A DNA stretch of 64,000 nucleotides from a virus (Duplodnaviria; Heunggongvirae; Uroviricota; Caudoviricetes), in IMG/VR virus record IMGVR_UViG_3300025319_000008, positions 42,433-106,432 of that record; one strand, 5' to 3'. The notes beneath the pieces are model-generated. The model ran no database searches, had not been told where the DNA came from, and saw only the letters and a list, made by a program, of their open reading frames with translations. Positions 2,757 through 35,321 of this stretch are shown one piece after another. The translations under genes and the position numbers were made by a program. Positions within the stretch are counted from its first letter, which is position 1. Every line of letters begins with the position of its first letter.

Positions 2757-3302
2757 ATGCGAGAAATACAAATTCGAAATATATTTGTTGATATTTTCTT
2801 AACTTATTATCTAAAATTCGGATATAATATAAGTTTCGCAGCGATGCATATGTCCGGTAATAATACATTTACTGATGAGCAATCATTGAGCAAAATTTTT
2901 AATTCTATTAACAGTAAAATCCGAGCCGTTAATAAACATAACAGCAAAAATTGTTCTTTCCTTAATTTATCCGGAGTATTAAATTTACCGATTAAAGAAA
3001 TATATCCGGTTTCATTTCAATTAAAACCAGAGGAGCAATTTTGGTTTGAGTTCATCATTAATATGGAAGCCGGAAAATTCCTTGAACTTTGTGATGAAAC
3101 AAAGAATATAAGAGAACTCAGGAGATTGTATTCAATTCCAGAATCTTTCAAAGAAGAATTTTTAAGTATATTCAATAATAAAAATGCAATAGATTTAGTG
3201 AGAGCAAGATTTATCATGGGAGAAAGAATTGGAAATGAACCATCGAGAACTGGATTTTTTATTAATTATACTACCGGAGTGGCACATAGAATACATTCTT
3301 AA
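2757..3302 (+). CDS. hypothetical protein (true start may be the internal Met near 2850)
   Basis: 181-aa ORF with no motif. Confidence 0.3.
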   Translation: MREIQIRNIFVDIFLTYYLKFGYNISFAAMHMSGNNTFTDEQSLSKIFNSINSKIRAVNKHNSKNCSFLNLSGVLNLPIKEIYPVSFQLKPEEQFWFEFIINMEAGKFLELCDETKNIRELRRLYSIPESFKEEFLSIFNNKNAIDLVRARFIMGERIGNEPSRTGFFINYTTGVAHRIHS

Positions 3303-3341
3303 TTATTTTTTGTTTATCTTTGTTTTTTAATAACAATAAAG

Positions 3342-4076
3342 ATGAAAAACAAATCAGAAGCAAGACTTCGTCAATTTGATGTAGCATACATGGATATTGC
3401 AAAAAGGTGGGCTCTATTGTCTTATGCTGTAAAAAAACAAGTAGGAGCTATCATAGTTAAAGACCGGATGATAATCTCTGATGGCTTCAATGGAACGCCC
3501 AAAAATTTTGACAATAAGGCAGAAGATATGGACGGTAAGACGCACTGGTACACATTGCATGCGGAATCTAACGCCATCCTCAAATTATCAACTTCAACCC
3601 AAAGCTCAATAGGAGCTACTTTATATGTTACTTGTTGTCCATGCAGGAATTGTGCAAAATTAATTTTGCAATCCAAAATAGCAAGGGTCGTGTACGACGA
3701 AGATTATAAAACAACTGATGGCGTTGATTTCTTAAAAAAAGCCGGCATACAAGTTCAAAAAATGAGTGAGATTAAAAATAACTATACTAATATTATAGAT
3801 GCCTTTGAACTGGATATGAAAGATAATAAATGCACTCATACACATAGTGCTATTTGGAAATCTCTTACAGAAAAAGATTTAGAGTCTGTTGATAGTGCTG
3901 CTAATTTCATATTAGAAAACCACACAGAGAATCTTTCTTTGATCAGAGCATACTTAATGGAAACGAATGCATATAAGATAAATCTAAAGAATCGAAACAA
4001 AGTATATGTTAAAGCAATTCAAATTTGTGATAATTCTGGTTTAAATACTGCAGATTTCTTGTCAAATCTTAAATAA
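3342..4076 (+). CDS. dCMP / deoxycytidylate deaminase (CMP/dCMP zinc-binding fold) with a ~90-aa C-terminal extension
   Basis: HAESNAI (H-A-E) and CCPCRNCA (PCxxC) zinc ligand motifs; N-terminal FMDIAKRWALLS is typical of dCMP deaminases. Confidence 0.85.
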   Translation: MKNKSEARLRQFDVAYMDIAKRWALLSYAVKKQVGAIIVKDRMIISDGFNGTPKNFDNKAEDMDGKTHWYTLHAESNAILKLSTSTQSSIGATLYVTCCPCRNCAKLILQSKIARVVYDEDYKTTDGVDFLKKAGIQVQKMSEIKNNYTNIIDAFELDMKDNKCTHTHSAIWKSLTEKDLESVDSAANFILENHTENLSLIRAYLMETNAYKINLKNRNKVYVKAIQICDNSGLNTADFLSNLK

Positions 4077-4077
4077 T

Positions 4078-4413
4078 ATGGAATGTATTCCAGAAAATAA
4101 AATCATAGAGTATCCTATTAAAAAATTTGATAATCTTAATAGGGTAATTTATATAGATTGGAATGGAGTTGAGCGTTGCATTAATGTTTTTTGGGGTGAC
4201 ACAAATAAAATTAAAATAAAATATAGACTTTGGCATAGCGAAACAGAAGTTGAAGCTTATGACGAAAAAGGAAACGTTATTTTTCAAAGCTCTGCCGGAG
4301 TTATAGTTATAAAATTTCCAAGATTAAAAATTAAAGATGGAAAATTACTTTATACTGTTGAAAGAAAAAAAATAAAAGAATGGTTGAAAAAACTTGATTG
4401 TAATAAAAATTAA
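4078..4413 (+). CDS. hypothetical protein
   Basis: 111-aa ORF starting 2 nt after the previous stop. Confidence 0.4.
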   Translation: MECIPENKIIEYPIKKFDNLNRVIYIDWNGVERCINVFWGDTNKIKIKYRLWHSETEVEAYDEKGNVIFQSSAGVIVIKFPRLKIKDGKLLYTVERKKIKEWLKKLDCNKN

Positions 4414-4498: not shown

Positions 4499-5857
4499 AT
4501 GAAAAAAAGCAAAAAAACAGAAGTCTGTTGTGCAGTGTGTAAAAAAGTAGAATTTGTATACTTAAGTAGGGCAAAAAAATATAACACTTGTTCTGTTGAA
4601 TGTATGGGTGAATATAATAAATCACCTAATAATGTAAAATGTTTTTCTTGTGGAAAAGAATTTCACTTACAACCAAAAAGAACAAAAAGACTTACTGATG
4701 AAAAACATATAACTTGCTCAATGAAATGTGCTGGTGAATTAAAAAAAATTATTTACCTCGGTAGGAATAATCCAAATACAAAATATATGATTGATGATAA
4801 TTTTTTTAAAAAAGTAGATACGGAACAAAAAGCGTATTTGCTTGGATGGATAGCTAGTGATGGAAATTTAGCTCCAAATGGTACAATAAATATTTCTATT
4901 CATAAAAAAGACAGGAAGTGCTTAGAGGAATTAAGAGATATAATTTGTAAAGATATTCCAATTTCTAATGGAAAAAAAAGTATGATAACGCTTAGAATTT
5001 GTTCAACTACAATGAATAATGATATTTGCTCACTTTTAAAAATAAAACCTGAAAAAAAATCAGACATAGTTGATTTTCCAAATTTAGAAAATGACGATTT
5101 AAAATGGGCATTTATAAGAGGTTTTTTTGACGGAGATGGGTGTGTATCTTTATTTACTGAAACACACGCTGCTCCTAGTTGTAATATAGCTACTAATTCA
5201 AAATTAATGCGTAAAGGAATTATTGAATTTGTTAATATACCAAATTGGACTAACGATGTAGACAAAATAGAATGGTATGGAAATAATGCTCTTGATTTTT
5301 TATCTAAAATATATGACAATAGCTCTATTAAATTACAAAGAAAGTATGAAAGATATTTAGACATTTCTGCTTGGGTTCCATCTATATCTTATAGCAGACA
5401 TTTTAAAACTGAACATTTTAAATTCTCAAAATCTATAAAAGAAGCTGTATCACCATCTAAAACAAGAGCTTCAGATTCTGGATATGATTTGGTTATACTT
5501 AAAAAGATTAAAACCATTGGAGAAGTTGAATTTTATGACACCGGAATAAAAGTTAAACCTACATTTGGATATTATTTTAATTTAGTACCAAGAAGTTCAA
5601 TAACAAAGACTGGATATATGTTAGCAAATTCAATTGGCGTTATTGATAGAACATATCACGGTAGTATAATAGTCCCTTTAATAAAAATTGATAAAAATGC
5701 ACCTGACATTCAATTGCCAGCAAAAATAGTTCAAATCATACCAACTTCCATAATTCATGTAGAGTTTAAGGAAGTTGAAGAACTTGAAGAAACACAGCGT
5801 GCAGAAGGGGGATTTGGAAGTACAGATTTGAAAAAAAATAAAAATAGTTCAATATAA
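4499..5857 (+). CDS. dut: fusion protein: N-terminal C4 zinc ribbons, a double-motif LAGLIDADG homing endonuclease module, then a complete C-terminal dUTPase
   Basis: CxxC pairs at the N-terminus; LLGWIASDGNL and FIRGFFDGDGCV (LAGLIDADG motifs ~100 aa apart); dUTPase motifs I-V in the last ~150 aa (SDSGYDL, VPRSS, GVIDRTYHGSI, AKIVQI, RAEGGFGSTD). Confidence 0.75.
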   Translation: MKKSKKTEVCCAVCKKVEFVYLSRAKKYNTCSVECMGEYNKSPNNVKCFSCGKEFHLQPKRTKRLTDEKHITCSMKCAGELKKIIYLGRNNPNTKYMIDDNFFKKVDTEQKAYLLGWIASDGNLAPNGTINISIHKKDRKCLEELRDIICKDIPISNGKKSMITLRICSTTMNNDICSLLKIKPEKKSDIVDFPNLENDDLKWAFIRGFFDGDGCVSLFTETHAAPSCNIATNSKLMRKGIIEFVNIPNWTNDVDKIEWYGNNALDFLSKIYDNSSIKLQRKYERYLDISAWVPSISYSRHFKTEHFKFSKSIKEAVSPSKTRASDSGYDLVILKKIKTIGEVEFYDTGIKVKPTFGYYFNLVPRSSITKTGYMLANSIGVIDRTYHGSIIVPLIKIDKNAPDIQLPAKIVQIIPTSIIHVEFKEVEELEETQRAEGGFGSTDLKKNKNSSI

Positions 5858-5964: not shown

Positions 5965-7995
5965 ATGCAAGACGAATTAAATAATGATGAAAATCAAGGT
6001 CCGGTAAATCCGAATGAAACATCAACTCGAAAAAAAGACAAGTCAAAAACTCCTATGTTGGATAATTTTGGCAAGGATTTGACCAAAATGGCATTAGAAG
6101 GAAAACTTGAGCCTGTAATCGGAAGAGAAAAAGAAATCGACCGGGTGATTCAGATTTTGAGTAGGAAAAAGAAGAATAACCCCGTCCTTATTGGGTTTCC
6201 CGGTGTTGGAAAAACTTGTATTGCTGAAGGTTTGGCAATGAAAATAGCTCACAAAAATGTTAGTAGGATTTTGCATGGAAAGAGAATTATTTCTCTTGAT
6301 CTTTCTTTGATTGTTGCAGGTACTAAATATCGCGGACAATTTGAAGAAAGAATGAAAACTCTCATTGAAGAAATTGAACAAAATGAAGATGTAATTGTCT
6401 TTATGGATGAATTACATACAATCATTGGAGCGGGTAATGCTGCCGGAAGTTTAGATGCTTCTAATATGATTAAGCCAGCTCTTGCTAGAGGACAAATGCA
6501 ACTCATAGGTGCCACAACAATAGACGAGTATAAAAAATCTATAGAAAAAGATGGTGCTATGGAACGTCGTTTTCAAAAAGTTATGGTTGATGAACCATCA
6601 GTAGACCAAACAAAAGAAATTATCAATCAATCTAAAGGGATGTATGAAGAATTCCATGGAGTTGTATTTGAAAATGCTGCTATTAATGCGGTTGTTGATT
6701 TGGCTGATAGATATATTACTGGACGATATTTTCCAGATAAGGCATTTGATGTGCTGGATGAAGCTGGTTCAAGAATACATATTGACAATTTAAATACTCC
6801 TCCAGAAATTATTCAAATTGAACTTGAAATCGAGGAAACAAAAACACAAAAAGATATTTTTGTTAAAACTCAACAATACGAACAAGCTGCAAAAATTAGA
6901 GATAAAGAAAAAGAATTAAGCAGAAATCTTGAGTTAAGGAAAGCGGAATGGGAAAAAACTGAAAAAAACAATCGTATTCCAGTTACAGAAGCTGATGTAG
7001 CTAAAGTTATTTCAAAAATGATTGGAGTACCAGTAACAAAATTAACTGAAGATGAAGGAGTAAAGCTTATTAATATGCCGGAAGAACTTAAAAAACGTGT
7101 TGTTGGTCAAGATAATGCGGTTGTTAAAGTAGCAGAGGCTATTCAGCGAAACAGAGCTGGACTTAATAATCCAAATAAACCAATTGCATCATTTATATTT
7201 TTAGGCTCCACCGGTGTAGGTAAAACGGAATTAGCAAAAGCTTTAGCTCAATATCTTTTTAATGATGAAGATGCTATGATTAAAATTGATATGAGTGAAT
7301 ATACAGAGCCTCATAATATAAGTAGATTGACTGGAAGTCCTCCAGGATATGTGGATAGCTCCGAAGGTGGTCAGCTCACAGAGAAGGTTCGCAACAAACC
7401 ATATTCAGTTATTTTGTTTGATGAAATCGAAAAAGCTCATCCACTTGTACATAATATTTTCCTTCAAATACTTGATGAGGGTAAACTTACAAGTGGACTC
7501 GGAATAACTGTGAACTTTAAAAATACTATAATTATTATGACTTCCAATGTTGGAACTAAAGAAATGTCTGAATATAAATCTGTTGGATTTGGTCTTGGAG
7601 AACGTAAGAGTGTTGATATTGAAGAAATTGTTAAAAAAGCTCTTAAGGGAAAATTTAAACCAGAATTTTTAAATCGCCTCGATGAGCAAGTTATTTTTAA
7701 TCTTTTAACAAAAGAAAACATAAATGAAATAACCGGTATTCATATTAATAATTTTTCAAAATTAGTAGAGAAACAAGGTTATAAACTTGAAGTTAGTAAA
7801 TCTATGAGAGAAATCATTGCAAAAGACGGTTTTAGTGAAGAATTTGGCGCAAGGCCAATTTTGAGGATGATAACAAAATATATACAGACACCGATTTCTA
7901 AGGATTTACTTTTAAAAAAATTCACAGCAGGCGACACAATATATGTTGACTGGGACAAAAAAAAAGAAGAAGTAAAAGTTACTTCTAAAAAGTAA
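5965..7995 (+). CDS. Clp/Hsp100 family ATPase with two AAA+ modules (ClpC/ClpA-like, short N-domain)
   Basis: Walker A GFPGVGKT and GSTGVGKTE; sensor and arginine-finger regions; overall ClpA/ClpC architecture; 676 aa. Confidence 0.9.
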   Translation: MQDELNNDENQGPVNPNETSTRKKDKSKTPMLDNFGKDLTKMALEGKLEPVIGREKEIDRVIQILSRKKKNNPVLIGFPGVGKTCIAEGLAMKIAHKNVSRILHGKRIISLDLSLIVAGTKYRGQFEERMKTLIEEIEQNEDVIVFMDELHTIIGAGNAAGSLDASNMIKPALARGQMQLIGATTIDEYKKSIEKDGAMERRFQKVMVDEPSVDQTKEIINQSKGMYEEFHGVVFENAAINAVVDLADRYITGRYFPDKAFDVLDEAGSRIHIDNLNTPPEIIQIELEIEETKTQKDIFVKTQQYEQAAKIRDKEKELSRNLELRKAEWEKTEKNNRIPVTEADVAKVISKMIGVPVTKLTEDEGVKLINMPEELKKRVVGQDNAVVKVAEAIQRNRAGLNNPNKPIASFIFLGSTGVGKTELAKALAQYLFNDEDAMIKIDMSEYTEPHNISRLTGSPPGYVDSSEGGQLTEKVRNKPYSVILFDEIEKAHPLVHNIFLQILDEGKLTSGLGITVNFKNTIIIMTSNVGTKEMSEYKSVGFGLGERKSVDIEEIVKKALKGKFKPEFLNRLDEQVIFNLLTKENINEITGIHINNFSKLVEKQGYKLEVSKSMREIIAKDGFSEEFGARPILRMITKYIQTPISKDLLLKKFTAGDTIYVDWDKKKEEVKVTSKK

Positions 7996-8001
7996 AAAAG
8001 A

Positions 8002-8027
8002 AAGCCTGAAATTATTCAGGCTTTTTT
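8002..8027. terminator. bidirectional intrinsic terminator between convergent genes
   Basis: aagcctgaa / ttcaggctt 9-bp stem with a 4-nt loop, followed by a T-run; lies between the Clp ATPase stop (7995) and the minus-strand gene end (8026). Confidence 0.5.
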
Positions 8028-8967
8028 ATGCAAAAAAACTTTTACTTCCATTCCAATATTCTGAATAAGTTCTTTCTATGTGATATGGTAAAAAATTTGG
8101 TAAATTATTTTTTTCCTTTTCTTCTATATATTTAGAACGATTAGATATGTCTGGCCTATTGTCTTTTAACCATTTTTTTGCTTCATAAAAATTTAAAAAT
8201 TCTTTTTTTGAATATTTGTTATTATAATTATAAAGAAAATCTTCAATACTTATCCATGTATTTTTTGTTTTATATGTTCTTTCAGGATTGTATGGTAAAA
8301 AATATATTTTTTCACTTTGAATATATAATCTATAGTCTTGTAGTGTTTCTAAATTAGGATTATTATTCTTAAGAAAAATTTTTGCATCATTATAATTTAA
8401 CATTGTTTTCTTGACAGAGTTAGAGTTATAGCCTTTTGATAATTTATTTAAAAAATCTTCCCACCCAATCCATCCTTTATTTTTAAAAACATCTTTTGGG
8501 CATTTCGGTATATGAGTTGGTAATTTATATTTTATTTTTTTGAAATCACTTTCAAATATTAAATCTGGATATTTTTCGTTAATCCATTTTTTACATTCTT
8601 CATAAGTTATGAAATATTTAATTTTACCTCCGCCACGAGGTCCAAATTGTCCACCAATTTGTAGATTGGTTAGTTTGCAACCTTTTTCTTTGTAAAAATT
8701 TATCCAAAATCTTTCTCTTTCTTCCCAGTTATGTTCGTTAACTATTTCAATTATTTTAATATCTATTTTTCCGCCTTTAACTATTATAGACTGCATCCAC
8801 TTATCTTTATAGGTTTTTTTAAACTTTGAAATATATTTATGTTCACTTAATCGTCCTTTTATTGTTCTTTCTGTTTTTCCTATATATTTTATTTCCTCTG
8901 GTGTATTAGCTTCGAATAATCCATATATTATAATTTTTTTCATTTTACTGATTTTAGCCTCGTTCAT
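8026..8967 (-). CDS. freestanding GIY-YIG homing endonuclease with C-terminal repeat region
   Basis: N-terminal IIIYGLFEANTPEEIKYIGKTERTIKGRLSEH (GIY...YIG...R...E); sits on the opposite strand between the Clp ATPase and clpP. Confidence 0.7.
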   Translation of the reverse strand: MNEAKISKMKKIIIYGLFEANTPEEIKYIGKTERTIKGRLSEHKYISKFKKTYKDKWMQSIIVKGGKIDIKIIEIVNEHNWEERERFWINFYKEKGCKLTNLQIGGQFGPRGGGKIKYFITYEECKKWINEKYPDLIFESDFKKIKYKLPTHIPKCPKDVFKNKGWIGWEDFLNKLSKGYNSNSVKKTMLNYNDAKIFLKNNNPNLETLQDYRLYIQSEKIYFLPYNPERTYKTKNTWISIEDFLYNYNNKYSKKEFLNFYEAKKWLKDNRPDISNRSKYIEEKEKNNLPNFLPYHIERTYSEYWNGSKSFFA

Positions 8968-9102
8968 ACTTTTGAGGTAATATTATGTAAATATGATAAT
9001 TATTTAAGAAAATGAAATAGTTATTATTTTATTAAGATTTATTTTATTTTACAATAAAAAATATTACATTTGTCAACACATAAACAAACTAAAAAATATA
9101 AT

Positions 9103-9792
9103 ATGCAAAACATTATTGAAAAATTTGAAATAGCAGGAAAAAGCGCCAACATAAATAAAAAGCTAATCTCCAGTTCGACCAACAAATTAATTGACCATTC
9201 TATTAAAAATCTATCTCCAAGTGTAATAGAAGAATCAAGTTCTGGACAATTAATATCATATGATGTGTATTCTCGTCTTTTAAAAGATAGAATAATCTAT
9301 TTTTGCCATCCGGTAACTACTGAAACTTCTAATATTGCAATAGCACAAATATTGTTTTTAGAAATGACTGAAGGTAAAAAAGATATTACATTTTATATCA
9401 TGAGTCCGGGCGGGGAAATTGACTCAGGAAGCGCAATTTTAGACACATTCGAGCTTGTTTCGTGTGATATTAAAACGGTTGGAATGGGAGTTGTTGCAAG
9501 TATGGGTACAATGCTTTTATCAAGTGGGACGAAAGGTAAAAGATATGCATTACCAAGTTCAAGAATAATGATGCACGAATTAGCATCTGGATTTGAAGGA
9601 AAAATGAAAGATTTAAAAGTAAGTTATGAACAATGTCAAATAATGGAAAAAAGATTGTATGAAAAACTTTCTAAAAATACAGGACAGGATTATGAAACAA
9701 TATTCAATAAATGTCAAAAAGATTATTGGGTTTCAGCAGAGCAAGCAGTTGGAGAAGGATTAATTGACGAAGTTCTAATAAAAAGAAAATAA
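9103..9792 (+). CDS. clpP: ATP-dependent Clp protease proteolytic subunit
   Basis: YSRLLKDRIIYF; catalytic Ser in GVVASMGT and His in IMMHELASG; ATG at 9103 preferred over the TTG ORF start at 9070. Confidence 0.9.
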   Translation: MQNIIEKFEIAGKSANINKKLISSSTNKLIDHSIKNLSPSVIEESSSGQLISYDVYSRLLKDRIIYFCHPVTTETSNIAIAQILFLEMTEGKKDITFYIMSPGGEIDSGSAILDTFELVSCDIKTVGMGVVASMGTMLLSSGTKGKRYALPSSRIMMHELASGFEGKMKDLKVSYEQCQIMEKRLYEKLSKNTGQDYETIFNKCQKDYWVSAEQAVGEGLIDEVLIKRK

Positions 9793-9828
9793 GAGGTAGG
9801 GAGCAAAAATAACCAAATCTCAAGTAAG

Positions 9829-9860
9829 CGGAGTGTTGTATAATACAACATTCCGTTTTA
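9829..9860 (+). terminator. intrinsic terminator after clpP
   Basis: 12-bp stem (cggagtgttgta / tacaacattccg, one G-T wobble) followed by tttt. Confidence 0.5.
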
Positions 9861-9958
9861 CCTTTTTAAAAAATTAATATTTTTAAGTACAAATTTAAAT
9901 AATTAGATAAAGCGTAATAGATTTATTTTTTTTTCATATTTATTATTAAATATAAAAA

Positions 9959-10885
9959 ATGAGAAAGAAATGGACAGAAAAAGAAATTGATTTTTTAATA
10001 GAAAATGTAAAAAAAATCACATTAAATGAAATAGCAGAAAAATTAGAAAAAAAAATAAGTGTAGTTAAATCTAAATTATATAAATTAGGTATATGCACTA
10101 TTAAATGGTCAAAAGATGAGGATGATTTATTACGTGAAAATTTTCCACTTAAACCAACAAGATTATTAATTGAATTATTTAAAAACAGAACTAGGAGTTC
10201 TCTTCTAAATAGAGCAACATTTTTAGGATTGAAGAGAAATAATGAAGCTAGATTTGTTTATAAAAAATATAAATACAATGTTAATCATAATTTTTTTGAT
10301 GATTTTTCACTTGAAAATTGTTATTGGGCTGGTTTTATATCAGCTGATGGATGTGTAAAACCTATTAATTCTTTATTAAGTATAAAATTAAGTAGTAAAG
10401 ATGTTGAGCATTTAGAAGTTTTTAAAAAAACAATAAATTCTAATGCTCCAATATTCATTAGAGATAACAACTCTTTTGGTACTGAACATAAATCAGCAAC
10501 TATAGACATATATTCAAAAAATATAATAAATAAATTAAAAATAAATTTTTTAATTACTAATAAAAAAACATTTACAGCAGTGCCTCCAACAATAAAAAAT
10601 TCAAATCAAAAAATAGCATTTATAATTGGGTTATTAGATGGGGATGGTTCAATATATAAAATTAATAATAATTTAAGAATAACATTTTTAGGCACATTAA
10701 AAATGCTTGAATGGATTAAAGAAACATTAAAAACAACATTATTTGTTGATGTGAATCAAAAAATACATCAAAAAGGTAAAATATATTCTTTTGCTATATC
10801 TAACAAACCAGTATTAAGTTTAATAGAGTGGGTTAAAAAAAATGAAATATATTATTTAAATAGAAAAATTGGAAAATATGTCTGA
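9959..10885 (+). CDS. freestanding LAGLIDADG homing endonuclease with an N-terminal HTH-like DNA-binding region
   Basis: YWAGFISADGCV and IGLLDGDGSI motifs ~100 aa apart; inserted between clpP and dnaJ, overlapping the dnaJ start. Confidence 0.75.
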   Translation: MRKKWTEKEIDFLIENVKKITLNEIAEKLEKKISVVKSKLYKLGICTIKWSKDEDDLLRENFPLKPTRLLIELFKNRTRSSLLNRATFLGLKRNNEARFVYKKYKYNVNHNFFDDFSLENCYWAGFISADGCVKPINSLLSIKLSSKDVEHLEVFKKTINSNAPIFIRDNNSFGTEHKSATIDIYSKNIINKLKINFLITNKKTFTAVPPTIKNSNQKIAFIIGLLDGDGSIYKINNNLRITFLGTLKMLEWIKETLKTTLFVDVNQKIHQKGKIYSFAISNKPVLSLIEWVKKNEIYYLNRKIGKYV

Positions 10886-12011
10886 AAAAGAAAGTCTCTA
10901 TAATATTCTTGAAGTAGACAAAACAGCATCTCAAGAAGAAATAAAACAATCTTATAGAAAATTAGTAAAAAAACATCACCCAGATAAGGGTGGGGATGAA
11001 AATACTTTTAAAAAAATTTCTAACGCATATGATATTTTATCCAACCCAGAAAAGAAAGCTAAATATGAAAACGATGGCATGTTTAATGATGGTGGTTTTG
11101 GATTTAATCCTCACAGTATGGCGGATGAATTATTTAGAAGGCATGCTGAATCATTTGGGTTTAGAGGTGGTAGTAGTAGACATGCTCAACAAACAAAAAC
11201 TAGAAGAGGTGGAGATTTAAAAATAAGAATTTCATTAACTATTCATGAATTAATTACAGGTGCACATAAAAAAGTAAAATTACAAAGAGAAATAAATTGT
11301 CCAGACTGTTCTGGAACTGGTGCTAAAAATAAAGAATCGATAGTAAAATGCAGTGTATGTGATGGTACTGGTATTGTTACAATAAGACAGAATACGCAAA
11401 TGGGAATGATGATTCAACAATACACTTGTCAGCATTGTGGTGGAGAAGGAAAAGAAATTAAAGAAAAATGCAATTCCTGTAAAGGACAAGGGATGATTTC
11501 GAATAGTGATGAAGTAGAATTTGATATTCCAGCCGGTGCAGTAGAAGGAATAAATTTAAACATTAATAACGTTGGAAACGAAGCAAGAGGCGGAGGGAAT
11601 AACGGAAGTCTTATTATTGAAATAACAGAGATTGAACATCCTATTTTTAAAAGAGAAGGCAATAATATTTTAACTGATGTTTTTATTAGTTATTATGATG
11701 CTGTGATTGGGAATGATTCTTTAGAAATAAATACTGTTGATGGAAACGTTAAAGTCAAAATAGAGCCAGGAACAGAGTCTGGCAAAATCCTACGTTTAAA
11801 AGGTAAAGGAATTCCTAATATAAATAATCCTTCTCAAAGAGGCGATCAAATGGTTTATGTAAATATTTTTGTTCCAAAGACATTAACAGAAGAAGAAAGG
11901 AAATCTATTACAGAACTTAAGAATGTTAAATCAGCTGAGCCGGATAGTGAAAAAACACAACATTTAAAAGGTGTTTATTCTCGCATTAGAGAATATGATG
12001 AATTGCATTAA
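10878..12011 (+). CDS. dnaJ: chaperone DnaJ (J domain plus four CxxCxGxG zinc-finger repeats plus C-terminal domain)
   Basis: YNILEV...HHPDKGG (HPD motif); CPDCSGTG, CSVCDGTG, CQHCGGEG, CNSCKGQG; ATG at 10878 (the ORF track start at 10869 is TTG). Confidence 0.9.
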   Translation: MSEKESLYNILEVDKTASQEEIKQSYRKLVKKHHPDKGGDENTFKKISNAYDILSNPEKKAKYENDGMFNDGGFGFNPHSMADELFRRHAESFGFRGGSSRHAQQTKTRRGGDLKIRISLTIHELITGAHKKVKLQREINCPDCSGTGAKNKESIVKCSVCDGTGIVTIRQNTQMGMMIQQYTCQHCGGEGKEIKEKCNSCKGQGMISNSDEVEFDIPAGAVEGINLNINNVGNEARGGGNNGSLIIEITEIEHPIFKREGNNILTDVFISYYDAVIGNDSLEINTVDGNVKVKIEPGTESGKILRLKGKGIPNINNPSQRGDQMVYVNIFVPKTLTEEERKSITELKNVKSAEPDSEKTQHLKGVYSRIREYDELH

Positions 12012-18491: not shown

Positions 18492-19646
18492 ATGTCAAAA
18501 AAATTAACAACAGAAGAGTTTATTGAAAGAGCTAAAATTATACATGTAAACAGAATAACTAATGAATCAAAATATGATTACAGTTTAGTTGAATATAAAA
18601 ATAGCAAAACTAAGATTAAAATAATTTGTAAAGAACATGGTGTTTTTGAGCAAACGCCAAATGATCATTTATCTGGTTGTGGATGTGTTGAATGTTCTGG
18701 ACTCAAAAAATTAACAACCGAAGAATTTATTGAAAAGTCTAACAAAGTTCATAGTAATATATATGATTATTCATTAGTAGAATATTTTAACAATAATACA
18801 AAAGTTAAAATAATATGTAATAATCATGGAGTTTTTGAACAAATTCCAGCAAGTCATTTGGGTGGGCATGGATGTGGTAAGTGTGGCGGAACCGCATTAA
18901 GAAACACGATAGAGTTTATTGAAAAATCTATAATTATTTATGGATATACATATAATTATGAGTTAGTTGAATATGTTAATTCTATAATTAAAGTTAAGAT
19001 AATTTGTAAGAAACATGGTGTTTTTGAGCAATCACCAGATAAACATTTAGCTGGACACCAATGTCCTTTTTGCGGATTTGAAGAAAGTTCCTTAAAAAGA
19101 GCTAATACTTCTGAATATTTTATTGAAAAATCGAAAATTATACACATAAATGAAAAAACATGTGAACCAAAATACGATTATTCAAAAGTTAACTACGTTC
19201 AAAACAAAACTAAGGTAATAGTAATTTGTCCATTACATGGAGATTTTCAAATAACTCCAAGCTCACATTTGAATGGATATGGATGTAAAAAATGTAATTT
19301 TTCAAAAATATCAAAGGGAGAAAAAGGTATAATTGAATTTTTAAAAAAGAATAACATCGAATTTATACATCAACATAAATTTAATGATTGCATAGGAATA
19401 TCAAATAAATTACCATTTGATTTTTATTTACCAAAATACAATACTTGTATAGAATTTGATGGGAGACAGCATTTTGAATCAGTCAAAAAATTTGGAGGAG
19501 AAAAAAATTTTTTGGATATACAAAGAACTGATAACATAAAAAATAAATATTGTTTAAATAACAATATAAAACTTATTAGAATTTCATATTTAAATTTGAA
19601 AAATATAAATGAAATTTTAGAGAAAGAATTCAACTGTATTGAGTAA
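18492..19646 (+). CDS. zinc-ribbon repeat protein with a C-terminal PD-(D/E)XK (Vsr/DUF559-like) endonuclease domain
   Basis: Five ~60-aa repeats of KYDYSLVEY...K.KIICK.HGVFEQ.P..HL.G.GC..C; C-terminal LPFDFYLPKYNTCIEFDGRQHF; paralog at 34194..35321. Confidence 0.65.
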   Translation: MSKKLTTEEFIERAKIIHVNRITNESKYDYSLVEYKNSKTKIKIICKEHGVFEQTPNDHLSGCGCVECSGLKKLTTEEFIEKSNKVHSNIYDYSLVEYFNNNTKVKIICNNHGVFEQIPASHLGGHGCGKCGGTALRNTIEFIEKSIIIYGYTYNYELVEYVNSIIKVKIICKKHGVFEQSPDKHLAGHQCPFCGFEESSLKRANTSEYFIEKSKIIHINEKTCEPKYDYSKVNYVQNKTKVIVICPLHGDFQITPSSHLNGYGCKKCNFSKISKGEKGIIEFLKKNNIEFIHQHKFNDCIGISNKLPFDFYLPKYNTCIEFDGRQHFESVKKFGGEKNFLDIQRTDNIKNKYCLNNNIKLIRISYLNLKNINEILEKEFNCIE

Positions 19647-24320: not shown

Positions 24321-26378
24321 ATGGTAATGAAACAACATTCATTTTTGGTAGATATCGGCAAAACTATGGTCGATACAAATAAAATAAGCTCAGAAGGAAA
24401 AGACAGTCAAAGAATGTACTGCCATTGCGGTAATAAAAAAGAGCTAAAAAGTAAAGCGAGAAGATTGCTTGTAAAAAAACACGACACTACTGTTGAAGAC
24501 AAGCATAGTATTGAAACAATTAAATGTGATAAGTGCGGAAGCGTTTATGACAGTAAAAATCGTTTATTTCTTATTATTCCAGATGAAGATGAAATTTATA
24601 AAGTTTCATTTTTAGTAGAAGAAAAAGGAAAAACAATAACTCTTTTAAGACAAAAAACATTTGTTAGATACGATTCTTCTACTGATAAATTAAATGATAA
24701 TATTGTCAGAACCGATTCAATTAAATTTGATAGAAGCAAAAACAAAACTGAAATTTTCTTAGAAAAGCCATTACTTGATAAAATATCAGTAAATAATAAG
24801 CAGAATGATGTGAATAACATTACGGAAGAAGTAGGTCTTTCAAAAATAGGAAGATTAGAACATTTTTTCCAATTTTATGATTTTGCTTCTTATGGTGGTC
24901 TTATAAATATATTCAATTTTTTTAACAAAATTGATGTTGTAGTAACTGACCTTGACGATATTAAGAAATTGATTCCTCAAATAAGTTATGCTTATAATAA
25001 TCATGATGTTTTTGAAAAAACAGATGAAATAACCGGAGAGTCAATAACTTATAATAAAGTTGATAGCGGTTTTGGAGACGGAAAAAAAGAAGAGAAAAAA
25101 TTAAATATAGGTGGGTATTTATCCAGATATGTTGAATTGTCTAAAATTTTTCTTTGTGTATCTGACTTCCAGAGTATTTCAACAATATTACTTACTAAAG
25201 GACAAGTGTTTTTTAAAGAATTTATCCACAGTAAAAACATTTTATCTTCTCAAGTTTATGAATTGTTTGAAGCAACATCTCCTACTAAAATATTGGAAAT
25301 TTCTATGAATTGCGATATTAACGGTATGTTAAAAGGAAGTGGAGATAATGATACTAAGGAAGTTGCTAAAAAAGTCGTTAAAATATCAAAAACCATAGAA
25401 GATAGTCCTAACTATTTAAAGGTTAGTCCTTTGATTTATAAACACATAAGCACTCCACAGGATATGGAAATTTTGCTTAGTATATATCGTAAAAAATATA
25501 TTTCCAAAACTGATATTGAAACTTTGTTTCAAAGTTATGATACTGAGCGTATTTATAAATTCTACAGAAATTTAGAAAAACAAAGAATTCAAGATAATGC
25601 CAGTTTTACAATCAAAAACATTAAACACATCTTAGATAGAAATATAGATGATGTTGTAAAAGGTGGCAATTCTGATTATTTGCATTTGTATACAGATACT
25701 ATTAACTCAATGAGGCTGTTGGAGCTTTCTGATAATTATATTTATCGTATTAAAAGTAATGTCGAGTTAAAAACTATACATGATGACCTTGCAGCGAGAT
25801 ATGGAGCTATTAAAGATGCTAAAAAAGCAGAATTTTATAAAAAAGCAGCTAAGGAATTGTCAAACATAAATACAATTGTTGGCGATGTTGAATTGACAGT
25901 TATTCCAACTCTTGAGGACTTAAATAAAGAAGGTATGCTTATGAATCATTGTATTTATACATACCTTGATCGAATTGTTAATAGAGATTATATGGCTGTC
26001 CATGTACAACATATAATTTCAAATGAAAGAGCAACTTTGGGTTTATATCGTAAAAATGGAGGCCTTGAATTTGATCAGTTAAAAGGTTATCGTAACTCAA
26101 GAGCCTCAAGAGAGTTAATTGAAGGAGTACTGGAGTTTATACAAATTAACAAAATACAATCTTCTTCCAGAAACAGTGATTTAACACCTTCTGCCGGAAG
26201 CATAACCAGAATGCATGATTATTTAAGTGACGAAGAAGTCATGAAAATAAGAAAAGAAAGAGAAAAAAAGGAAAATATTGAGATGGAAAAAGCAAAATCA
26301 GAAGGAAAAGAGTATGTTCCTAAGTATTCAAAGTCACATCAAAAAAATAAAAAAGGATTTTTTGGATTATTTGCTTAA
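24321..26378 (+). CDS. large protein with N-terminal zinc ribbons and a C-terminal domain resembling PcfJ-like proteins
   Basis: CHCG...CDKCGS; C-terminal EGMLMNHCIYTYLDRIVNRDYMAVHV...LGLYRKNGGLEF; the PcfJ assignment is from memory of the family and is low confidence. Confidence 0.4.
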   Translation: MVMKQHSFLVDIGKTMVDTNKISSEGKDSQRMYCHCGNKKELKSKARRLLVKKHDTTVEDKHSIETIKCDKCGSVYDSKNRLFLIIPDEDEIYKVSFLVEEKGKTITLLRQKTFVRYDSSTDKLNDNIVRTDSIKFDRSKNKTEIFLEKPLLDKISVNNKQNDVNNITEEVGLSKIGRLEHFFQFYDFASYGGLINIFNFFNKIDVVVTDLDDIKKLIPQISYAYNNHDVFEKTDEITGESITYNKVDSGFGDGKKEEKKLNIGGYLSRYVELSKIFLCVSDFQSISTILLTKGQVFFKEFIHSKNILSSQVYELFEATSPTKILEISMNCDINGMLKGSGDNDTKEVAKKVVKISKTIEDSPNYLKVSPLIYKHISTPQDMEILLSIYRKKYISKTDIETLFQSYDTERIYKFYRNLEKQRIQDNASFTIKNIKHILDRNIDDVVKGGNSDYLHLYTDTINSMRLLELSDNYIYRIKSNVELKTIHDDLAARYGAIKDAKKAEFYKKAAKELSNINTIVGDVELTVIPTLEDLNKEGMLMNHCIYTYLDRIVNRDYMAVHVQHIISNERATLGLYRKNGGLEFDQLKGYRNSRASRELIEGVLEFIQINKIQSSSRNSDLTPSAGSITRMHDYLSDEEVMKIRKEREKKENIEMEKAKSEGKEYVPKYSKSHQKNKKGFFGLFA

Positions 26379-31553: not shown

Positions 31554-33959
31554 TTATTCTTTCTTTTTGAATTTAGTGAATTTTTTCTTCTTCGGTGAAT
31601 TTTTAGATTCTTTAATAATTTCTTCACAATCTTTTAAAGTTAAAGTATCAGCTTCTTTTCCTAGAGGAATTTTATGGTTGCCTGTCTTAGATTTTATGTA
31701 CGCTCCGAATTTACCATTAAGTACGCTTATGCCTTCTTTTTTAAATTCTTTAATGGTATTACTACTCTTTGCTGCACTTTTCTCTTCAAAGATTTCTATT
31801 GCACGTTTTAAAGATATTGTGGAAGGGTCTTCTTCTTTAGAAATTGAACTGTAGATTTGACCGACTTTGACGTATGGGCCGAAGCGTCCTATTGCAATTG
31901 AAACGTCTTCACCTTTATGTTTACCCATATTTCTTGGCCATATAAGAAGTTCTAATGCCTCTTCTATAGTGATGTTTTCTATTGTTTGTCCTTCTTTTAA
32001 TTTGGCGAATTTTGGCTTTTCTTCATCACTTTTTTTGTCAACACTCTCTCCCATTTGTATCATTGGTCCGAATTTACCTAAACGAGCGTAGATTATTTTG
32101 CCTGTTTTTGGGTCTTTGCCAATTTCTCTTATTCCGGCTTTTCCTTCTTCGCCTGCAGCTTCTTTTAATGTCTTGCTGAATGGTTCATAAAACTCTCCAA
32201 TCATCTGTTGCCACTCTTTATTTCCTTCTGCTATCTCATCAAGTTTTTCTTCAGTCTCTGCAGTAAATTTATAATCCATGATGTCCGGGAAATGTTTTTT
32301 TAGATAGTCAACTACCACTCCGGCAACTTCTGTTGGAACTAATTTTCCTTTTTCTCCTCCAAATTTATCTATTACTTCACTTTCTTCTATTTTATTGTTT
32401 GTTGATGATAGAGTTAATGTTTGGATTTTACGTTCCTTTGGTTCAATATCTTTTTTTTCAACGTATCCACGGTCTTGGATTGTTTGGATTATCGTAGCGT
32501 AGGTTGATGGCCTGCCAATTTGAAGCTCCTCCATGGATTTAACAAGTCCAGGTTCATTAAATCTTGGTACTGGTTTTGAAAATGATTGTGATGAAACTAA
32601 TTCTTTATAATAAAGTTTATCACCTTTTTCTAAAGGTGGAAGGATTTTAGAATCACTATCTTCATTTTCATTATCTTCTTTATTATCATCTGTGTCGTTG
32701 TATACTTTTAAAAACCCATCAAATTTTATAATTGTCCCTTTAGTTACAAATTGTTCTTTTATGTTTTGTGTGCCAATAGTAATTTTTGTAAGTTCTGTAA
32801 CTGCATCACTCATTTGTGAAGCCAAAGCTCTTTTATATATTAAATCATAAAGTCTAACTTCATCAGAAGAGCCAGATATTGTTTCTTGTTCGAAATGAGA
32901 ACAACGGATTCCTTCATGAGCTTCCTGACTTCCTTTGTTTTTGTTCTTATATTGCTTGTTGCATAAATATTTATCTCCGTATTTTGATTTTATTTGTGTG
33001 GAAATCTCTTTAATAGAATCTTCTGAAAGCATTACAGAATCAGTTCTGTGATAAGAAATAAACCCCTTGGAAAAAAGCGATTGAGCAGTATCCATACATC
33101 TTTTAACGCTAAATCCTAATTTATTTCCAGCAGTTTGTTGTAATGTACTTGTTGTAAATGGTGCTGAAGCTGTACGTTTTCCAATTTTTGTTTCTTTATT
33201 GTTAACTATAAATTCTTTTCCAATACATTCATTTAAAAATTTATGTGCAGTTTGCTTATCTTTAAATCTTTTATCTAAAATAGATTTTATTGAAACTCTT
33301 TTTTTTGTTTCAAAAGCTCCAGTAGTTTTAAAATCTACATCCGATTCAAAAGATTTTATTTCCCTTTCTTTTTCAACTATCAGTCTAACGGAGCTACTTT
33401 GCACCCTTCCAGCACTTAAATTAGGGGCTACTTTTTTCCAGAGCAACCCACTTAAATCAAACCCTACAATTCTATCCAAAACACGTCTTGCTTGTTGAGA
33501 ATTAGTTAAATTTTTATCAATTATTCCAGGATTATCTATTGCGTTTTTTACTGCTGTTTTTGTTATCTCATTAAATACAGCACGTTTAGTTGTTTCTAAT
33601 GGAAGGTCTAAAGTTATAGCCACTGAATGAGCTATAAATGAGCCTTCTCGGTCTAAGTCAGAAGCAAGAATAAATTCGTATCCATTTTTCTTAAATTCTT
33701 TTAATGTTTTAACAACATCTTTCTTGCTTTCAGATACAATGTAATGTGGTTCAAAATTATTTTTTTTATCCACTCCTTTTGCACCTTTATCTAATTCCAA
33801 GATATGTCCCACCGAAGCTATACAATCATAATTATGATATCCTATTTCTTTTAATATCTCTTTTATCTTTTTTATTTTTGATGGAGACTCTACCACCATA
33901 ACGTATTTCTGATTATCGGAACCTATTTTTTTCTTTGCCATTTTACAAATGTAATACAT
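31554..33959 (-). CDS. topA: DNA topoisomerase I (type IA)
   Basis: N-terminal TOPRIM VMVVESPSKIKKI; the catalytic region has the family-typical Tyr segment; 801 aa; alternative start at 33941 (MAKKK). Confidence 0.9.
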   Translation of the reverse strand: MYYICKMAKKKIGSDNQKYVMVVESPSKIKKIKEILKEIGYHNYDCIASVGHILELDKGAKGVDKKNNFEPHYIVSESKKDVVKTLKEFKKNGYEFILASDLDREGSFIAHSVAITLDLPLETTKRAVFNEITKTAVKNAIDNPGIIDKNLTNSQQARRVLDRIVGFDLSGLLWKKVAPNLSAGRVQSSSVRLIVEKEREIKSFESDVDFKTTGAFETKKRVSIKSILDKRFKDKQTAHKFLNECIGKEFIVNNKETKIGKRTASAPFTTSTLQQTAGNKLGFSVKRCMDTAQSLFSKGFISYHRTDSVMLSEDSIKEISTQIKSKYGDKYLCNKQYKNKNKGSQEAHEGIRCSHFEQETISGSSDEVRLYDLIYKRALASQMSDAVTELTKITIGTQNIKEQFVTKGTIIKFDGFLKVYNDTDDNKEDNENEDSDSKILPPLEKGDKLYYKELVSSQSFSKPVPRFNEPGLVKSMEELQIGRPSTYATIIQTIQDRGYVEKKDIEPKERKIQTLTLSSTNNKIEESEVIDKFGGEKGKLVPTEVAGVVVDYLKKHFPDIMDYKFTAETEEKLDEIAEGNKEWQQMIGEFYEPFSKTLKEAAGEEGKAGIREIGKDPKTGKIIYARLGKFGPMIQMGESVDKKSDEEKPKFAKLKEGQTIENITIEEALELLIWPRNMGKHKGEDVSIAIGRFGPYVKVGQIYSSISKEEDPSTISLKRAIEIFEEKSAAKSSNTIKEFKKEGISVLNGKFGAYIKSKTGNHKIPLGKEADTLTLKDCEEIIKESKNSPKKKKFTKFKKKE

Positions 33960-34053: not shown

Positions 34054-34197
34054 ATGGCTACGAAAACTAAAACATTCACATTACCAGAAGAAATTTTGGA
34101 AAAACTTGCTTCATATAGCGAGGAAAGCTTAATTCCTCAATCGGCATTAATTGCAAAGTTATTAAAAGAATTTTTTGAAAAAGAAAATAAAAAATGA
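34054..34197 (+). CDS. small ribbon-helix-helix DNA-binding protein
   Basis: 47-aa ORF not in the ORF track; KTFTLPEEILEKLASY...SALIAKLLKEFF; its stop overlaps the nuclease start (ATGA). Confidence 0.45.
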   Translation: MATKTKTFTLPEEILEKLASYSEESLIPQSALIAKLLKEFFEKENKK

Positions 34198-35321
34198 GTG
34201 GGAAAGCTATAAGTATTGAAAAATTTATTTTTAATGCAAAACAAATTCATGGAGAAAGGTACGATTATTCAAAATTTGAATATGTTAATTCCTCAGTAAA
34301 ATCCACAATTATATGTGAGAAACATGGCGAATTTTTACAATCTCCAAGAAATCACATGAAAGGATATAATTGTAAGAAATGTATGTACGAAGGAGAAAGA
34401 ACATTACCAAGTAAACATACTTTAGAATCATTTATTATTAAATCAAATGAAGTTCATGATAATAAATACGATTATTCAAAAGTGGTATATAAAAATAATA
34501 AACAACCAATTATTATAATTTGTCCAGAGCATGGAGAATTTAATCAAAGACCTGATAGTCATTTAAGTGGAAGGGGTTGTATTTATTGTTCAGGAACGTA
34601 TCAATATGCAAAAGAAGATTTTATAAAAAAATCTAATGAAAAACATAATAATAAATACGATTATTCTGAAGTTTTATACACAAAAAATGATAATAAAGTA
34701 ACAATAATTTGTAATAAACATGGAAAGTTCAGTCAATTAGCCAAAGACCATTTAAGAGGACGCGGATGTGACATATGTAGTGGTGGATATGTTGGAACTA
34801 AAGAAATATTTTTGGCAAAATCTTTTGAAGTTCATGGAAATACTTATAATTATGATAATGTAAAATATGTAAATAACCAAACAAAAGTAGATATAATTTG
34901 TAATAAACATGGTATTTTCAAACAAAGGCCAGCAATGCATTTATTTGGAAATGGTTGTCCAAAGTGTTCAAATTTTTCAAAAGGAGAAATTAAAATTACT
35001 AAAATTTTAGAAGAAAAAAATATAATATTTACATATCAAAAAACTTTTGATGATTGTAAAAATGTTTTTAAATTACCTTTCGATTTTTATTTACCAGATT
35101 ATAATACTTGTGTAGAATTTGATGGAGCTCAACATTTTAAAGCTTTTAAATACTTTGGTGGTGAAAAAACATTTAAAGCAAGGCAACTAAACGACCAAAT
35201 AAAAAACGAATACTGCAAAAACAATAACATTCCATTATTAAGAATTCCTTACTGGGACTTTAAGAACATTGAGACTATATTGACTGATTATTTAAAGTCA
35301 ATCCTTATCAACTCTAATTAA
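34194..35321 (+). CDS. zinc-ribbon repeat protein with a C-terminal PD-(D/E)XK (Vsr/DUF559-like) endonuclease domain; paralog of 18492..19646
   Basis: Five repeats (C..HG.F.Q.P..H..G.GC..C) plus LPFDFYLPDYNTCVEFDGAQHF. Confidence 0.65.
   Translation: MSGKAISIEKFIFNAKQIHGERYDYSKFEYVNSSVKSTIICEKHGEFLQSPRNHMKGYNCKKCMYEGERTLPSKHTLESFIIKSNEVHDNKYDYSKVVYKNNKQPIIIICPEHGEFNQRPDSHLSGRGCIYCSGTYQYAKEDFIKKSNEKHNNKYDYSEVLYTKNDNKVTIICNKHGKFSQLAKDHLRGRGCDICSGGYVGTKEIFLAKSFEVHGNTYNYDNVKYVNNQTKVDIICNKHGIFKQRPAMHLFGNGCPKCSNFSKGEIKITKILEEKNIIFTYQKTFDDCKNVFKLPFDFYLPDYNTCVEFDGAQHFKAFKYFGGEKTFKARQLNDQIKNEYCKNNNIPLLRIPYWDFKNIETILTDYLKSILINSN

Follow-up and report, generated by a model that had tools for sequence, protein, structure and literature searches.

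We analysed a 64,000-nucleotide stretch of DNA, hereafter called the window, which spans positions 42,433 to 106,432 of the IMG/VR virus record IMGVR_UViG_3300025319_000008. Near its beginning, genes for a Clp unfoldase, the protease ClpP and the co-chaperone DnaJ lie together with genes for predicted homing endonucleases. The features of this locus are as follows, with protein lengths in amino acids (aa) and the kind of evidence in brackets:

4499-5857, + strand: open reading frame (ORF) for a LAGLIDADG-dUTPase fusion (452 aa; Pfam, PHROGs)
5965-7995, + strand: ClpC-type class-I Hsp100/Clp unfoldase with two AAA+ modules (676 aa; Pfam, PHROGs, PDB)
8001-8024, no strand assigned: GC-rich hairpin with a 10 bp stem and T/A runs on either side (terminator scan)
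8026-8967, - strand: free-standing GIY-YIG homing endonuclease (313 aa; family evidence and predicted structure)
9103-9792, + strand: ClpP serine protease (229 aa; Pfam CLP_protease, 192 bits)
9826-9858, + strand: strong intrinsic-terminator-like hairpin with a 15 bp stem and a T run (terminator scan)
9959-10885, + strand: free-standing single-chain LAGLIDADG homing endonuclease (308 aa; Pfam, PHROGs, family profile)
10878-12011, + strand: class-I (type A) DnaJ co-chaperone (Pfam DnaJ, DnaJ_CXXCXGXG and DnaJ_C)

A first-pass annotation of this DNA had placed five genes between positions 5965 and 12011, and all five proved to be real at those coordinates by ORF mapping and domain scans, with refined starts for clpP and dnaJ. 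The two-AAA ATPase, which had been described as ClpC/ClpA-like, was confirmed and is specifically ClpC-like, without a Clp_N domain. Likewise, the family alignment, a profile and a predicted structure agreed that the opposite-strand gene between the ATPase and clpP belongs to the GIY-YIG family, and the LAGLIDADG gene between clpP and dnaJ does overlap the dnaJ start, by 8 nucleotides (nt). Both of the two endonucleases that had been reported are present, but the count was incomplete: a third LAGLIDADG domain, outside those coordinates but part of the same phenomenon, is fused in frame to the dUTPase encoded immediately upstream. The annotation had also allowed for the Clp proteins being catalytically dead on alignment, but they look active: the Walker pairs, pore-loop tyrosines, VGF tripeptide and Ser-His-Asp triad are all intact.

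The ATPase carries the Pfam domains AAA, AAA_lid_9, UVR, AAA_2 and ClpB_D2-small. Its best solved relatives are the ClpC proteins of S. aureus and B. subtilis (6em9 and 3j3t; expectation value, E, 4e-213 to ~1e-212), with alignments that cover ClpC residues 152-801 (at ~50% identity) and 152-808, respectively, and it matches phrog_4871 (3e-234) at profile positions 158-758. The Clp_N domain is absent: Pfam gave no match, and the alignments begin at ClpC residue 152 and PHROG position 158. The ClpC proteins of all relatives in the clade are equally truncated (669-693 aa). From the alignment with the PDB ClpC structures we read the Walker A/B pairs GFPGVGKT with FMDELH and GSTGVGKT with LFDEIEKAH, the pore-loop Tyr motifs KYRG and GYVD, and a VGF tripeptide (SVGFG) at the position of the ClpP-docking loop; a short UVR-like M-domain scored 25.4 bits against a UVR cutoff of 21.5. 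The NCBIfam equivalog cutoffs for ClpB (802.8 vs 1232) and ClpA (679.7 vs 993) were not reached. The AAA+ modules, the UVR-like M-domain, the VGF loop and the ClpP triad are thus common to the window and to the Firmicute ClpC-ClpP systems of B. subtilis and S. aureus. Firmicute ClpC, however, has an N-terminal domain that binds MecA, McsB and phospho-arginine. Since the window ClpC lacks this adaptor-binding domain, its substrate selection and activation must differ from those of Firmicute ClpC. Two further differences are an N-terminal extension of ~35 aa on the window ClpP and the differing evolutionary origins of the window ClpC and ClpP. None of 79 more IMG/VR ClpC loci (~50% identity) was syntenic with the window; ClpP lies 2-4 kb off in 11 of them and DnaJ in none. 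Similarly, neither ClpP nor DnaJ was found within 12 kb of ClpC in the published 642-kb huge phage LR756502.

Homologues and gene callers place the start of clpP at ATG 9103, where the ORF list had TTG 9070. The encoded triad Ser133-His158-Asp207 is intact, and alignment A2 shows no variation at S133 or H158 and hardly any at D207. Models of ClpP-like prohead proteases scored 60-66 bits on this protein, compared with 192 for CLP_protease, while the NCBIfam cutoffs for ClpP were missed (TIGR00493, 193 vs 308.6; PRK00277, 216 vs 249). The window ClpP is a member of a divergent clade with an N-terminal extension. This extension of ~35 aa (residues 1-36, window positions 9103-9210; consensus ..FE...K.LG...K.IS..TNKLID.S.KN) is common only to the relatives in the phage clade and is lacking in cellular ClpPs; it may be a propeptide, a gate or a docking element. 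The start of dnaJ was assigned to ATG 10878 and not to TTG 10869. DnaJ has a J domain with HPD, a G/F region, four CxxCxGxG zinc motifs and the C-terminal domains, and all three Pfam domains exceed their cutoffs, with TIGR02349 (339.9 bits) just under its cutoff of 377.2.

The GIY-YIG assignment came from the family as a whole. PF01541 gave no match to the window protein at E<=10, even when the protein was split into halves, whereas homologues of the window protein (E 6e-45 to 5e-23; 82-96% of its length covered), among them P0004, P0005, P0007 and P0008, carry this domain. The family alignment A1 shows no variation at residues Y15, Y28, G30, R39, E85 and N101, whose spacing matches, within 1-2 residues, that of Y6, Y17, R27, E75 and N90, which we take to be the corresponding residues of I-TevI. 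The family profile matched T4 EndoII at 4e-4 and I-TevI at 0.02. In the AlphaFold (AF2) model (predicted local distance difference test, pLDDT, 81) the core follows the order strand-strand-helix-helix-strand-helix; its top Foldseek match in the PDB was T4 EndoII (2wsh), with a probability of 0.98 but an E of 0.24 and a target-normalised template-modelling (TM) score of 0.44. The catalytic domain (~aa 10-105) is followed by three helical repeats of ~60 aa each, which make up the C-terminal two thirds of the protein and presumably bind DNA; one homologue showed a faint match to the Pfam family INT_rpt ('integrase repeat'). The hairpin at 8001-8024, located between the convergent ClpC and GIY-YIG genes, is probably a bidirectional intrinsic terminator.

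A search of IMG/VR with the family alignment gave 12 best loci of full length, in 9 of which clpP is the immediate neighbour of the GIY-YIG gene. In the JGI metagenomes this applies to 15 of 17 full-length loci; one of the two exceptions is a 1-kb contig with no space for clpP. A clpP gene also stands beside three shorter or contig-truncated metagenome matches, whereas the 59 metagenome loci with a match to the N-terminal catalytic domain only all lack it. The ClpPs concerned are only 27-44% identical to that of the window, and in L189/L190 the pair sits in an unrelated gene context. Such a tight and widespread adjacency, across ClpPs that divergent, could also mean that the two genes form a functional module, for instance a nuclease controlled by ClpP or a defence/counter-defence pair, and to that extent it counts against a selfish element. 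Their geometry, however, is not conserved. In most loci the genes are separated by gaps of 0-135 nt or overlap, with 478 nt between them in L099, and their orientation may be divergent, convergent (often overlapping) or co-oriented. This variation speaks for an element that has landed beside its target rather than for an operon. Moreover, the close relatives L007, L092 and L094-L097 have clpP without the nuclease, and a catalytic domain followed by modular repeats is the architecture of I-TevI- and Seg-type homing endonucleases. We therefore regard a functional nuclease-ClpP pair as very improbable. The presence or absence of the gene at the locus and its linkage to clpP lend indirect support to the prediction that the GIY-YIG protein would cut an endonuclease-free allele site-specifically, with homing as the result.

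The gene between clpP and dnaJ was recognised directly by LAGLIDADG_3 (31.8 bits vs a cutoff of 22.5) and by phrog_4645 'endonuclease' (9e-32). Its product has two LAGLIDADG motifs, WAGFISADG ending in D130 and IIGLLDGDG ending in D229, with both Asp residues invariant in 14 sequences, and two Myb/SANT-like repeats at the N-terminus. The family profile matched 2dch (5e-6), 1dq3 (1e-5) and a Myb DNA-binding domain (6e-4) in the PDB. The TGA stop (10883-10885) overlaps the dnaJ ATG by 8 nt, ATGTCTGA. The hairpin at 9826-9858 separates clpP from the LAGLIDADG and dnaJ genes, and L096 has a similar hairpin after its clpP. The terminators bracket the endonuclease units, and from their positions the LAGLIDADG gene and dnaJ look like one transcription unit. 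The region has more terminator-like sites than expected (9 vs 2.0 +/- 1.6), and the promoter scan was at chance level (56 found vs 53.4 expected).

The linkage of this gene to dnaJ was scanned with the 14-sequence alignment. In all nine distinct loci with at least 39% identity, namely the window, L096/097, the three P0134/P0136/P0138 groups and L192-L196, dnaJ follows immediately downstream, and at each of the five junctions inspected the end of the endonuclease gene and the dnaJ ATG share an overlap of 8-19 nt. Gene calls, which existed for the three P0134/P0136/P0138 groups, placed no clpP upstream there. None of 74 more distant LAGLIDADG relatives adjoins dnaJ, the gene being ~2.8 kb away in L247. 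The LAGLIDADG proteins of the window and the L180 group are 49-51% identical and their DnaJs 29-32%, whereas between the window and L096 the values are 41% and 48%, respectively. This reversal of the identity orders implies that the histories of the two genes disagree. DnaJ itself follows the backbone, and the window J domain exceeds its expected divergence by a small margin only.

Two candidate signs of target immunity or of endonuclease decay were given little or no weight. A 4-residue deletion after HPD (HPDKGGD-EN) was considered as a marker of target immunity; it occurs in 8 of 9 dnaJ alleles with the endonuclease vs 1 of 5 without, but with exceptions in L195 and L106 and non-independent samples it is not diagnostic and remains a weak lead. 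An apparent frameshift of the LAGLIDADG gene in the NCBI contig L001 (212 + 101 aa) is due to a scaffold gap of 20 consecutive N and does not reflect decay. As a separate observation, L180-L183 form an unrelated phage group that carries the dnaJ-linked LAGLIDADG gene, and within this group L182 (7351-7962) and L183 (6143-6754) have an extra 203-aa LAGLIDADG ORF, just upstream of a D12-class methyltransferase gene, which is absent from the near-identical L180 and L181. This represents a clean endonuclease polymorphism within a lineage.

The third endonuclease is part of the fusion ORF upstream of clpC. Here, a Cys-rich N-terminal region is followed by a two-motif LAGLIDADG domain (~aa 90-298; LAGLIDADG_3, 31.6 bits; phrog_4645) and a dUTPase of the trimeric type (~aa 308-452; 54.8 bits; phrog_135), with neither a stop nor a Met at the junction. 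The homologous endonuclease is free-standing in L092, where it is 49% identical and lies 42 nt upstream of dUTPase, and it lies just downstream of dUTPase in L353. The same fusion (436 aa, 2986-4296) was found in L352, an unrelated 21-kb viral contig, with a dUTPase 66% identical to that of the window. The window dUTPase is 29-33% identical to those of all relatives, which are 47-66% identical among themselves, and by this comparison it is of a foreign type. An exhaustive search with the fusion retrieved 685 representatives of 50%-identity clusters at E<=1e-30. Most of them align continuously over the two domains, and both Pfam domains were present in 7 of 8 sampled representatives. No record in a collection of 50,697 phages reached a fusion coverage of at least 80%, and no paper describing a LAGLIDADG-dUTPase fusion was among the top literature results.

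Six independent relatives share a backbone with the window that consists of dCMP deaminase, a small ORF, dUTPase, ClpC, in some cases an ORF that we call orfM, ClpP, DnaJ and an ORF of ~230 aa. A comparison at the clpC-clpP and clpP-dnaJ junctions gave the following:

Window: clpC-clpP, GIY-YIG gene (- strand), without orfM; clpP-dnaJ, LAGLIDADG gene
L188 (closest relative; ClpC 84%, DnaJ 66%): clpC-clpP, orfM; clpP-dnaJ, GIY-YIG gene, 58% identical
L007: clpC-clpP, orfM; clpP-dnaJ, a 152-aa ORF and an HNH-like 101-aa ORF
L094/L095: clpC-clpP, orfM; clpP-dnaJ, 87 nt only (site empty)
L096/L097: clpC-clpP, orfM; clpP-dnaJ, LAGLIDADG gene, 41-43% identical, with a 19-nt dnaJ overlap
L091: clpC-clpP, DUF7487 ORF and other ORFs; directly after clpP, GIY-YIG gene, 36% identical
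L092: clpC-clpP, DUF7487 ORF; clpP-dnaJ, small ORFs and then dnaJ

The GIY-YIG gene of L188 is convergent with clpP and overlaps its 3' end by 70 nt. The dnaJ-side site lacks the LAGLIDADG gene in both L094/L095 and L188, and no dnaJ was found in the 5 kb that follow in L091. The first-pass annotation had proposed that the endonuclease genes are intergenic insertions of the T4 seg/mob type beside conserved target genes, with related genomes as the test, and at both junctions this comparison revealed presence/absence and positional polymorphism, which favours mobility. Furthermore, both endonuclease subfamilies stay with their neighbour gene even where the phage backgrounds are unrelated; in total, roughly 30 clpP-linked and at least 10 dnaJ-linked loci were found.

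Other genes occupy these junctions as well. Directly upstream of dnaJ in L007 (14037-14342), the 101-aa ORF has the Cys/His pattern CPIC...HHFIPK...CHRKIH. It is HNH-like by motif reading alone, without a Pfam match, and if real it would add a third nuclease family at the junction. In L091 (3091-5160, - strand) and L092 (6621-7913, - strand) a minus-strand DUF7487 ORF of 430-689 aa directly follows clpC, with a mutual identity of 36%. It occupies the position of the window GIY-YIG gene and may be another mobile gene at the same junction.

The two Clp genes of the window differ in their affinities. Its ClpP is 74% identical to that of L091 and 73% to that of L092, as opposed to 48% for L188 and 50% for L007, whereas its ClpC is 84% identical to that of L188, 77% to that of L007 and 51% to that of L091. 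Judged by these identities, the window clpP allele is foreign relative to its closest backbone relatives. In addition, orfM (218-244 aa; 28-39% identity between genomes) lies between clpC and clpP in L007 (12040-12726), L188 (3584-4264, - strand), L094 (1251-1907) and L096 (9251-9940); the window, L091 and L092 lack it. Pfam gave no match for orfM or for the L007 inserts. The orfM product may serve ClpC as an adaptor or be itself a substrate of Clp; the window protease evidently manages without it. Because the affinities of ClpC and ClpP are opposite and orfM is missing, the segment from the end of clpC to the start of dnaJ is best read as replaced, and it is bounded by both endonuclease genes.

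The explanation that we favour, with a probability of roughly 70%, is that the ClpC-ClpP-DnaJ module of a phage-like genome of ~0.5 Mb has been colonised by three selfish endonucleases, each tied to one neighbour gene. According to this model, dCMP deaminase, dUTPase, N-domain-less ClpC, ClpP and DnaJ form a conserved auxiliary module in which ClpC hexamers would dock via their VGF loops on the barrel of the phage ClpP to give an ATP-dependent protease that works without the usual N-domain adaptors. DnaJ would recruit host Hsp70, as we propose because DnaK was not found among the window ORFs scanned. The GIY-YIG enzyme with its three C-terminal helical repeats would be tied to clpP, the Myb-plus-LAGLIDADG enzyme to the 5' end of dnaJ, with which its gene is probably co-transcribed and translationally coupled via the 8-nt stop/start overlap, and the remaining LAGLIDADG domain to dUTPase, to which it is fused in the window. 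Upon co-infection, each enzyme would cut its neighbour gene in the co-infecting genome where that allele is free of the endonuclease, and repair would copy the endonuclease gene together with flanking DNA, an intron-less homing as for the T4 seg/mob genes. Homing of this kind would account for the foreign clpP and dUTPase alleles, the loss of orfM, and the junctions that are empty or differently filled in relatives.

Several points weigh against homing. Cleavage sites, targets and homing events are all predicted, and the window GIY-YIG protein, when searched as a single sequence, escaped Pfam, PHROGs, NCBIfam and phmmer against the PDB. With relatives whose proteins share 50-84% identity, neither the exact insertion breakpoints nor the co-conversion tracts can be mapped at the DNA level. 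No endonuclease-free variant of the window genome was found among its near-identical copies from several samples, and the LAGLIDADG divergence between the window and L096 (41% identity) is near that of the flanking genes (47-48%), so that long vertical co-inheritance with losses is conceivable for this pair. These last observations would fit the view that the endonuclease genes are old, vertically inherited and immobile or domesticated, for example as regulators of clpP and dnaJ expression, with repeated loss as the cause of their patchiness. Indeed, they are present in every sampled copy of the window genome; the 41% identity of the LAGLIDADG proteins is about equal to that of ClpP and DnaJ on either side (48%); the conserved overlap of the endonuclease stop with the dnaJ start implies that expression is integrated; and the large and stable LAGLIDADG-dUTPase family suggests a host-beneficial role for some members. 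Against immobile passengers, however, the catalytic residues of both families are invariant (Y15, Y28, R39, E85 and N101; D130 and D229), and the LAGLIDADG protein is closer to enzymes beside a very distant dnaJ than to that of a nearer relative. The GIY-YIG gene occurs on differing sides of clpP and in differing orientations, and the adjacent clpP and dUTPase alleles are xenologous. We therefore consider such passengers unlikely.

A related question was whether the source is a phage at all. The identical sequence (99.8-100%) is present on six contigs from different samples, each with all three endonucleases, and the occurrence of near-identical copies in several independent samples excludes an assembly artefact. 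As a side observation, the source record CACVIJ010000001.1 (GCA_902731165.1), 503 kb in length, is labelled 'uncultured archaeon' at NCBI, contig and proteins alike. One could thus suppose a small cellular genome or a giant plasmid-like element, with ClpC, ClpP and DnaJ as housekeeping genes that were invaded by endonucleases. The label, which also appears in the NCBI names of ClpP and the dUTPase fusion, would agree with this, and so would the lack of any capsid, portal or terminase gene among those found in the 64-kb window, which speaks against a phage; PcfJ and ART-PolyVal domains are moreover known on conjugative elements too. A cellular genome is, in turn, hard to reconcile with 64 kb that contain no tRNA, and with the window ORFs scanned, which gave no ribosomal or core-metabolism match and most of which had either no match at all or one to PHROG families without a known function. 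Among syntenic relatives the nearest is a 519-kb viral contig in IMG/VR, and within the phage collection ClpC is matched best by two published huge-phage genomes (634-642 kb). The N-domain-less ClpC and the clade-specific ClpP extension are likewise unlike cellular orthologues. A non-phage origin thus seems to us distinctly unlikely. Going by context alone, that is the PHROG-only families and the relatives in viral databases, the source would be a huge phage or a similar giant element, and the 503-kb contig is probably a mis-binned huge phage or a giant extrachromosomal element. Immobile passengers, a nuclease-ClpP pair and a cellular origin are each less likely than homing.

The window further has bacterial-type ClpC, ClpP and DnaJ, a type IA topoisomerase, PHROG-only families and an excess of intrinsic terminators. 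The following genes lie elsewhere in it and are typical 'polyvalent' or conflict-related cargo of giant mobile genomes:

1581-2744: protein with an ART-PolyVal ADP-ribosyltransferase domain
24321-26378: PcfJ-like protein
31554-33959: full type IA topoisomerase with C-terminal repeats
39741-41165: SPFH/Band-7 protein

Two more ORFs (18492-19646 and 34194-35321) contain a DUF4379 'treble-clef zinc finger' domain, one of them with a weak DUF3846 match, and could be further nuclease-like or mobile genes.

T4-type free-standing homing endonucleases comprise the Seg (GIY-YIG) and Mob (HNH) enzymes, for instance SegG beside gene 32 and MobE beside nrdB (reviewed by Edgell et al. 2010, PMC2988022). 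The enzymes of the window resemble them in being intergenic, beside conserved phage genes, and in combining a catalytic domain with a modular DNA-binding tail. The T4 seg/mob genes are also patchy among related phages, co-convert flanking markers and leave mosaic alleles, which matches the pattern of the window. Unlike those of T4, the window genes have clpP, dnaJ and dUTPase as neighbours and presumed targets, in uncultured genomes of ~0.5 Mb, and the GIY-YIG tail consists of three ~60-aa repeats of the 'integrase repeat' type where I-TevI and Seg have NUMOD or helix-turn-helix modules. The free-standing endonuclease F-CphI beside psbA of cyanophage S-PM2 reportedly targets an endonuclease-free psbA allele. 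It shares with the window the position of an endonuclease gene beside an auxiliary, host-derived phage gene, but it belongs to a different nuclease family, has a different target and collaborates with an intron, a collaboration that was not seen in the window. I-DmoI, I-Tsp061I (2dch) and PI-PfuI (1dq3) have, like the window LAGLIDADG enzyme, two motifs that each end in a conserved Asp. The window enzyme differs from these three in being neither intron- nor intein-encoded, in its Myb/SANT-like repeats and in being joined to the dnaJ start codon.

The first-pass annotation had considered a phage that encodes its own unfoldase, protease and J-protein to be notable in itself. The genes are real, but phages with a ClpP, ClpA/X or DnaJ of their own were already known: Iyer et al. 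(2021) catalogued ClpP, ClpA/ClpX, ClpS and DnaJ of jumbo phages and predicted that phage Clp and J proteins act on host or virion proteins and recruit host Hsp70 (PMC7824862). There, these are sporadic and separate genes, whereas the clade of the window, with genomes of ~0.5 Mb, has ClpC, ClpP and a full-length class-I DnaJ in one conserved syntenic block. With regard to the endonucleases, a literature search found no report of a GIY-YIG-clpP or Myb-LAGLIDADG-dnaJ linkage. While free-standing phage homing endonucleases are textbook knowledge, the specific and recurrent association of a GIY-YIG subfamily with clpP, and that of a Myb-LAGLIDADG subfamily with the start of dnaJ, appear to be new. 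The same appears to apply to the endonuclease-associated replacement of clpP and dUTPase alleles in genomes of ~0.5 Mb and to the size of the LAGLIDADG-dUTPase fusion family.

A broader idea, which we put forward tentatively and at somewhat less than even odds, is that endonuclease lineages specialised on clpP, the 5' end of dnaJ and dUTPase swap whole alleles between distantly related large phages. If true, allele swapping would explain why the ClpC of one lineage is paired in the window with the ClpP of another, and the dUTPase case would be the furthest along, now a stable and very widespread family of fusion proteins. Such 'mismatched' ClpC-ClpP partners would be a natural experiment in unfoldase-protease compatibility, and the N-domain-less ClpC with the extended ClpP would offer a minimal adaptor-independent Clp protease for study. 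The endonuclease families would add nucleases with long recognition sites and guessable targets. The current understanding is not overturned by these findings. Rather, with three candidate endonuclease-target pairs (clpP, dnaJ and dUTPase), they would mean that intron-less homing, familiar above all from T4, also reaches the auxiliary proteostasis genes of uncultured phages of very large size, and would point to endonuclease-driven allele replacement as a source of their mosaicism.

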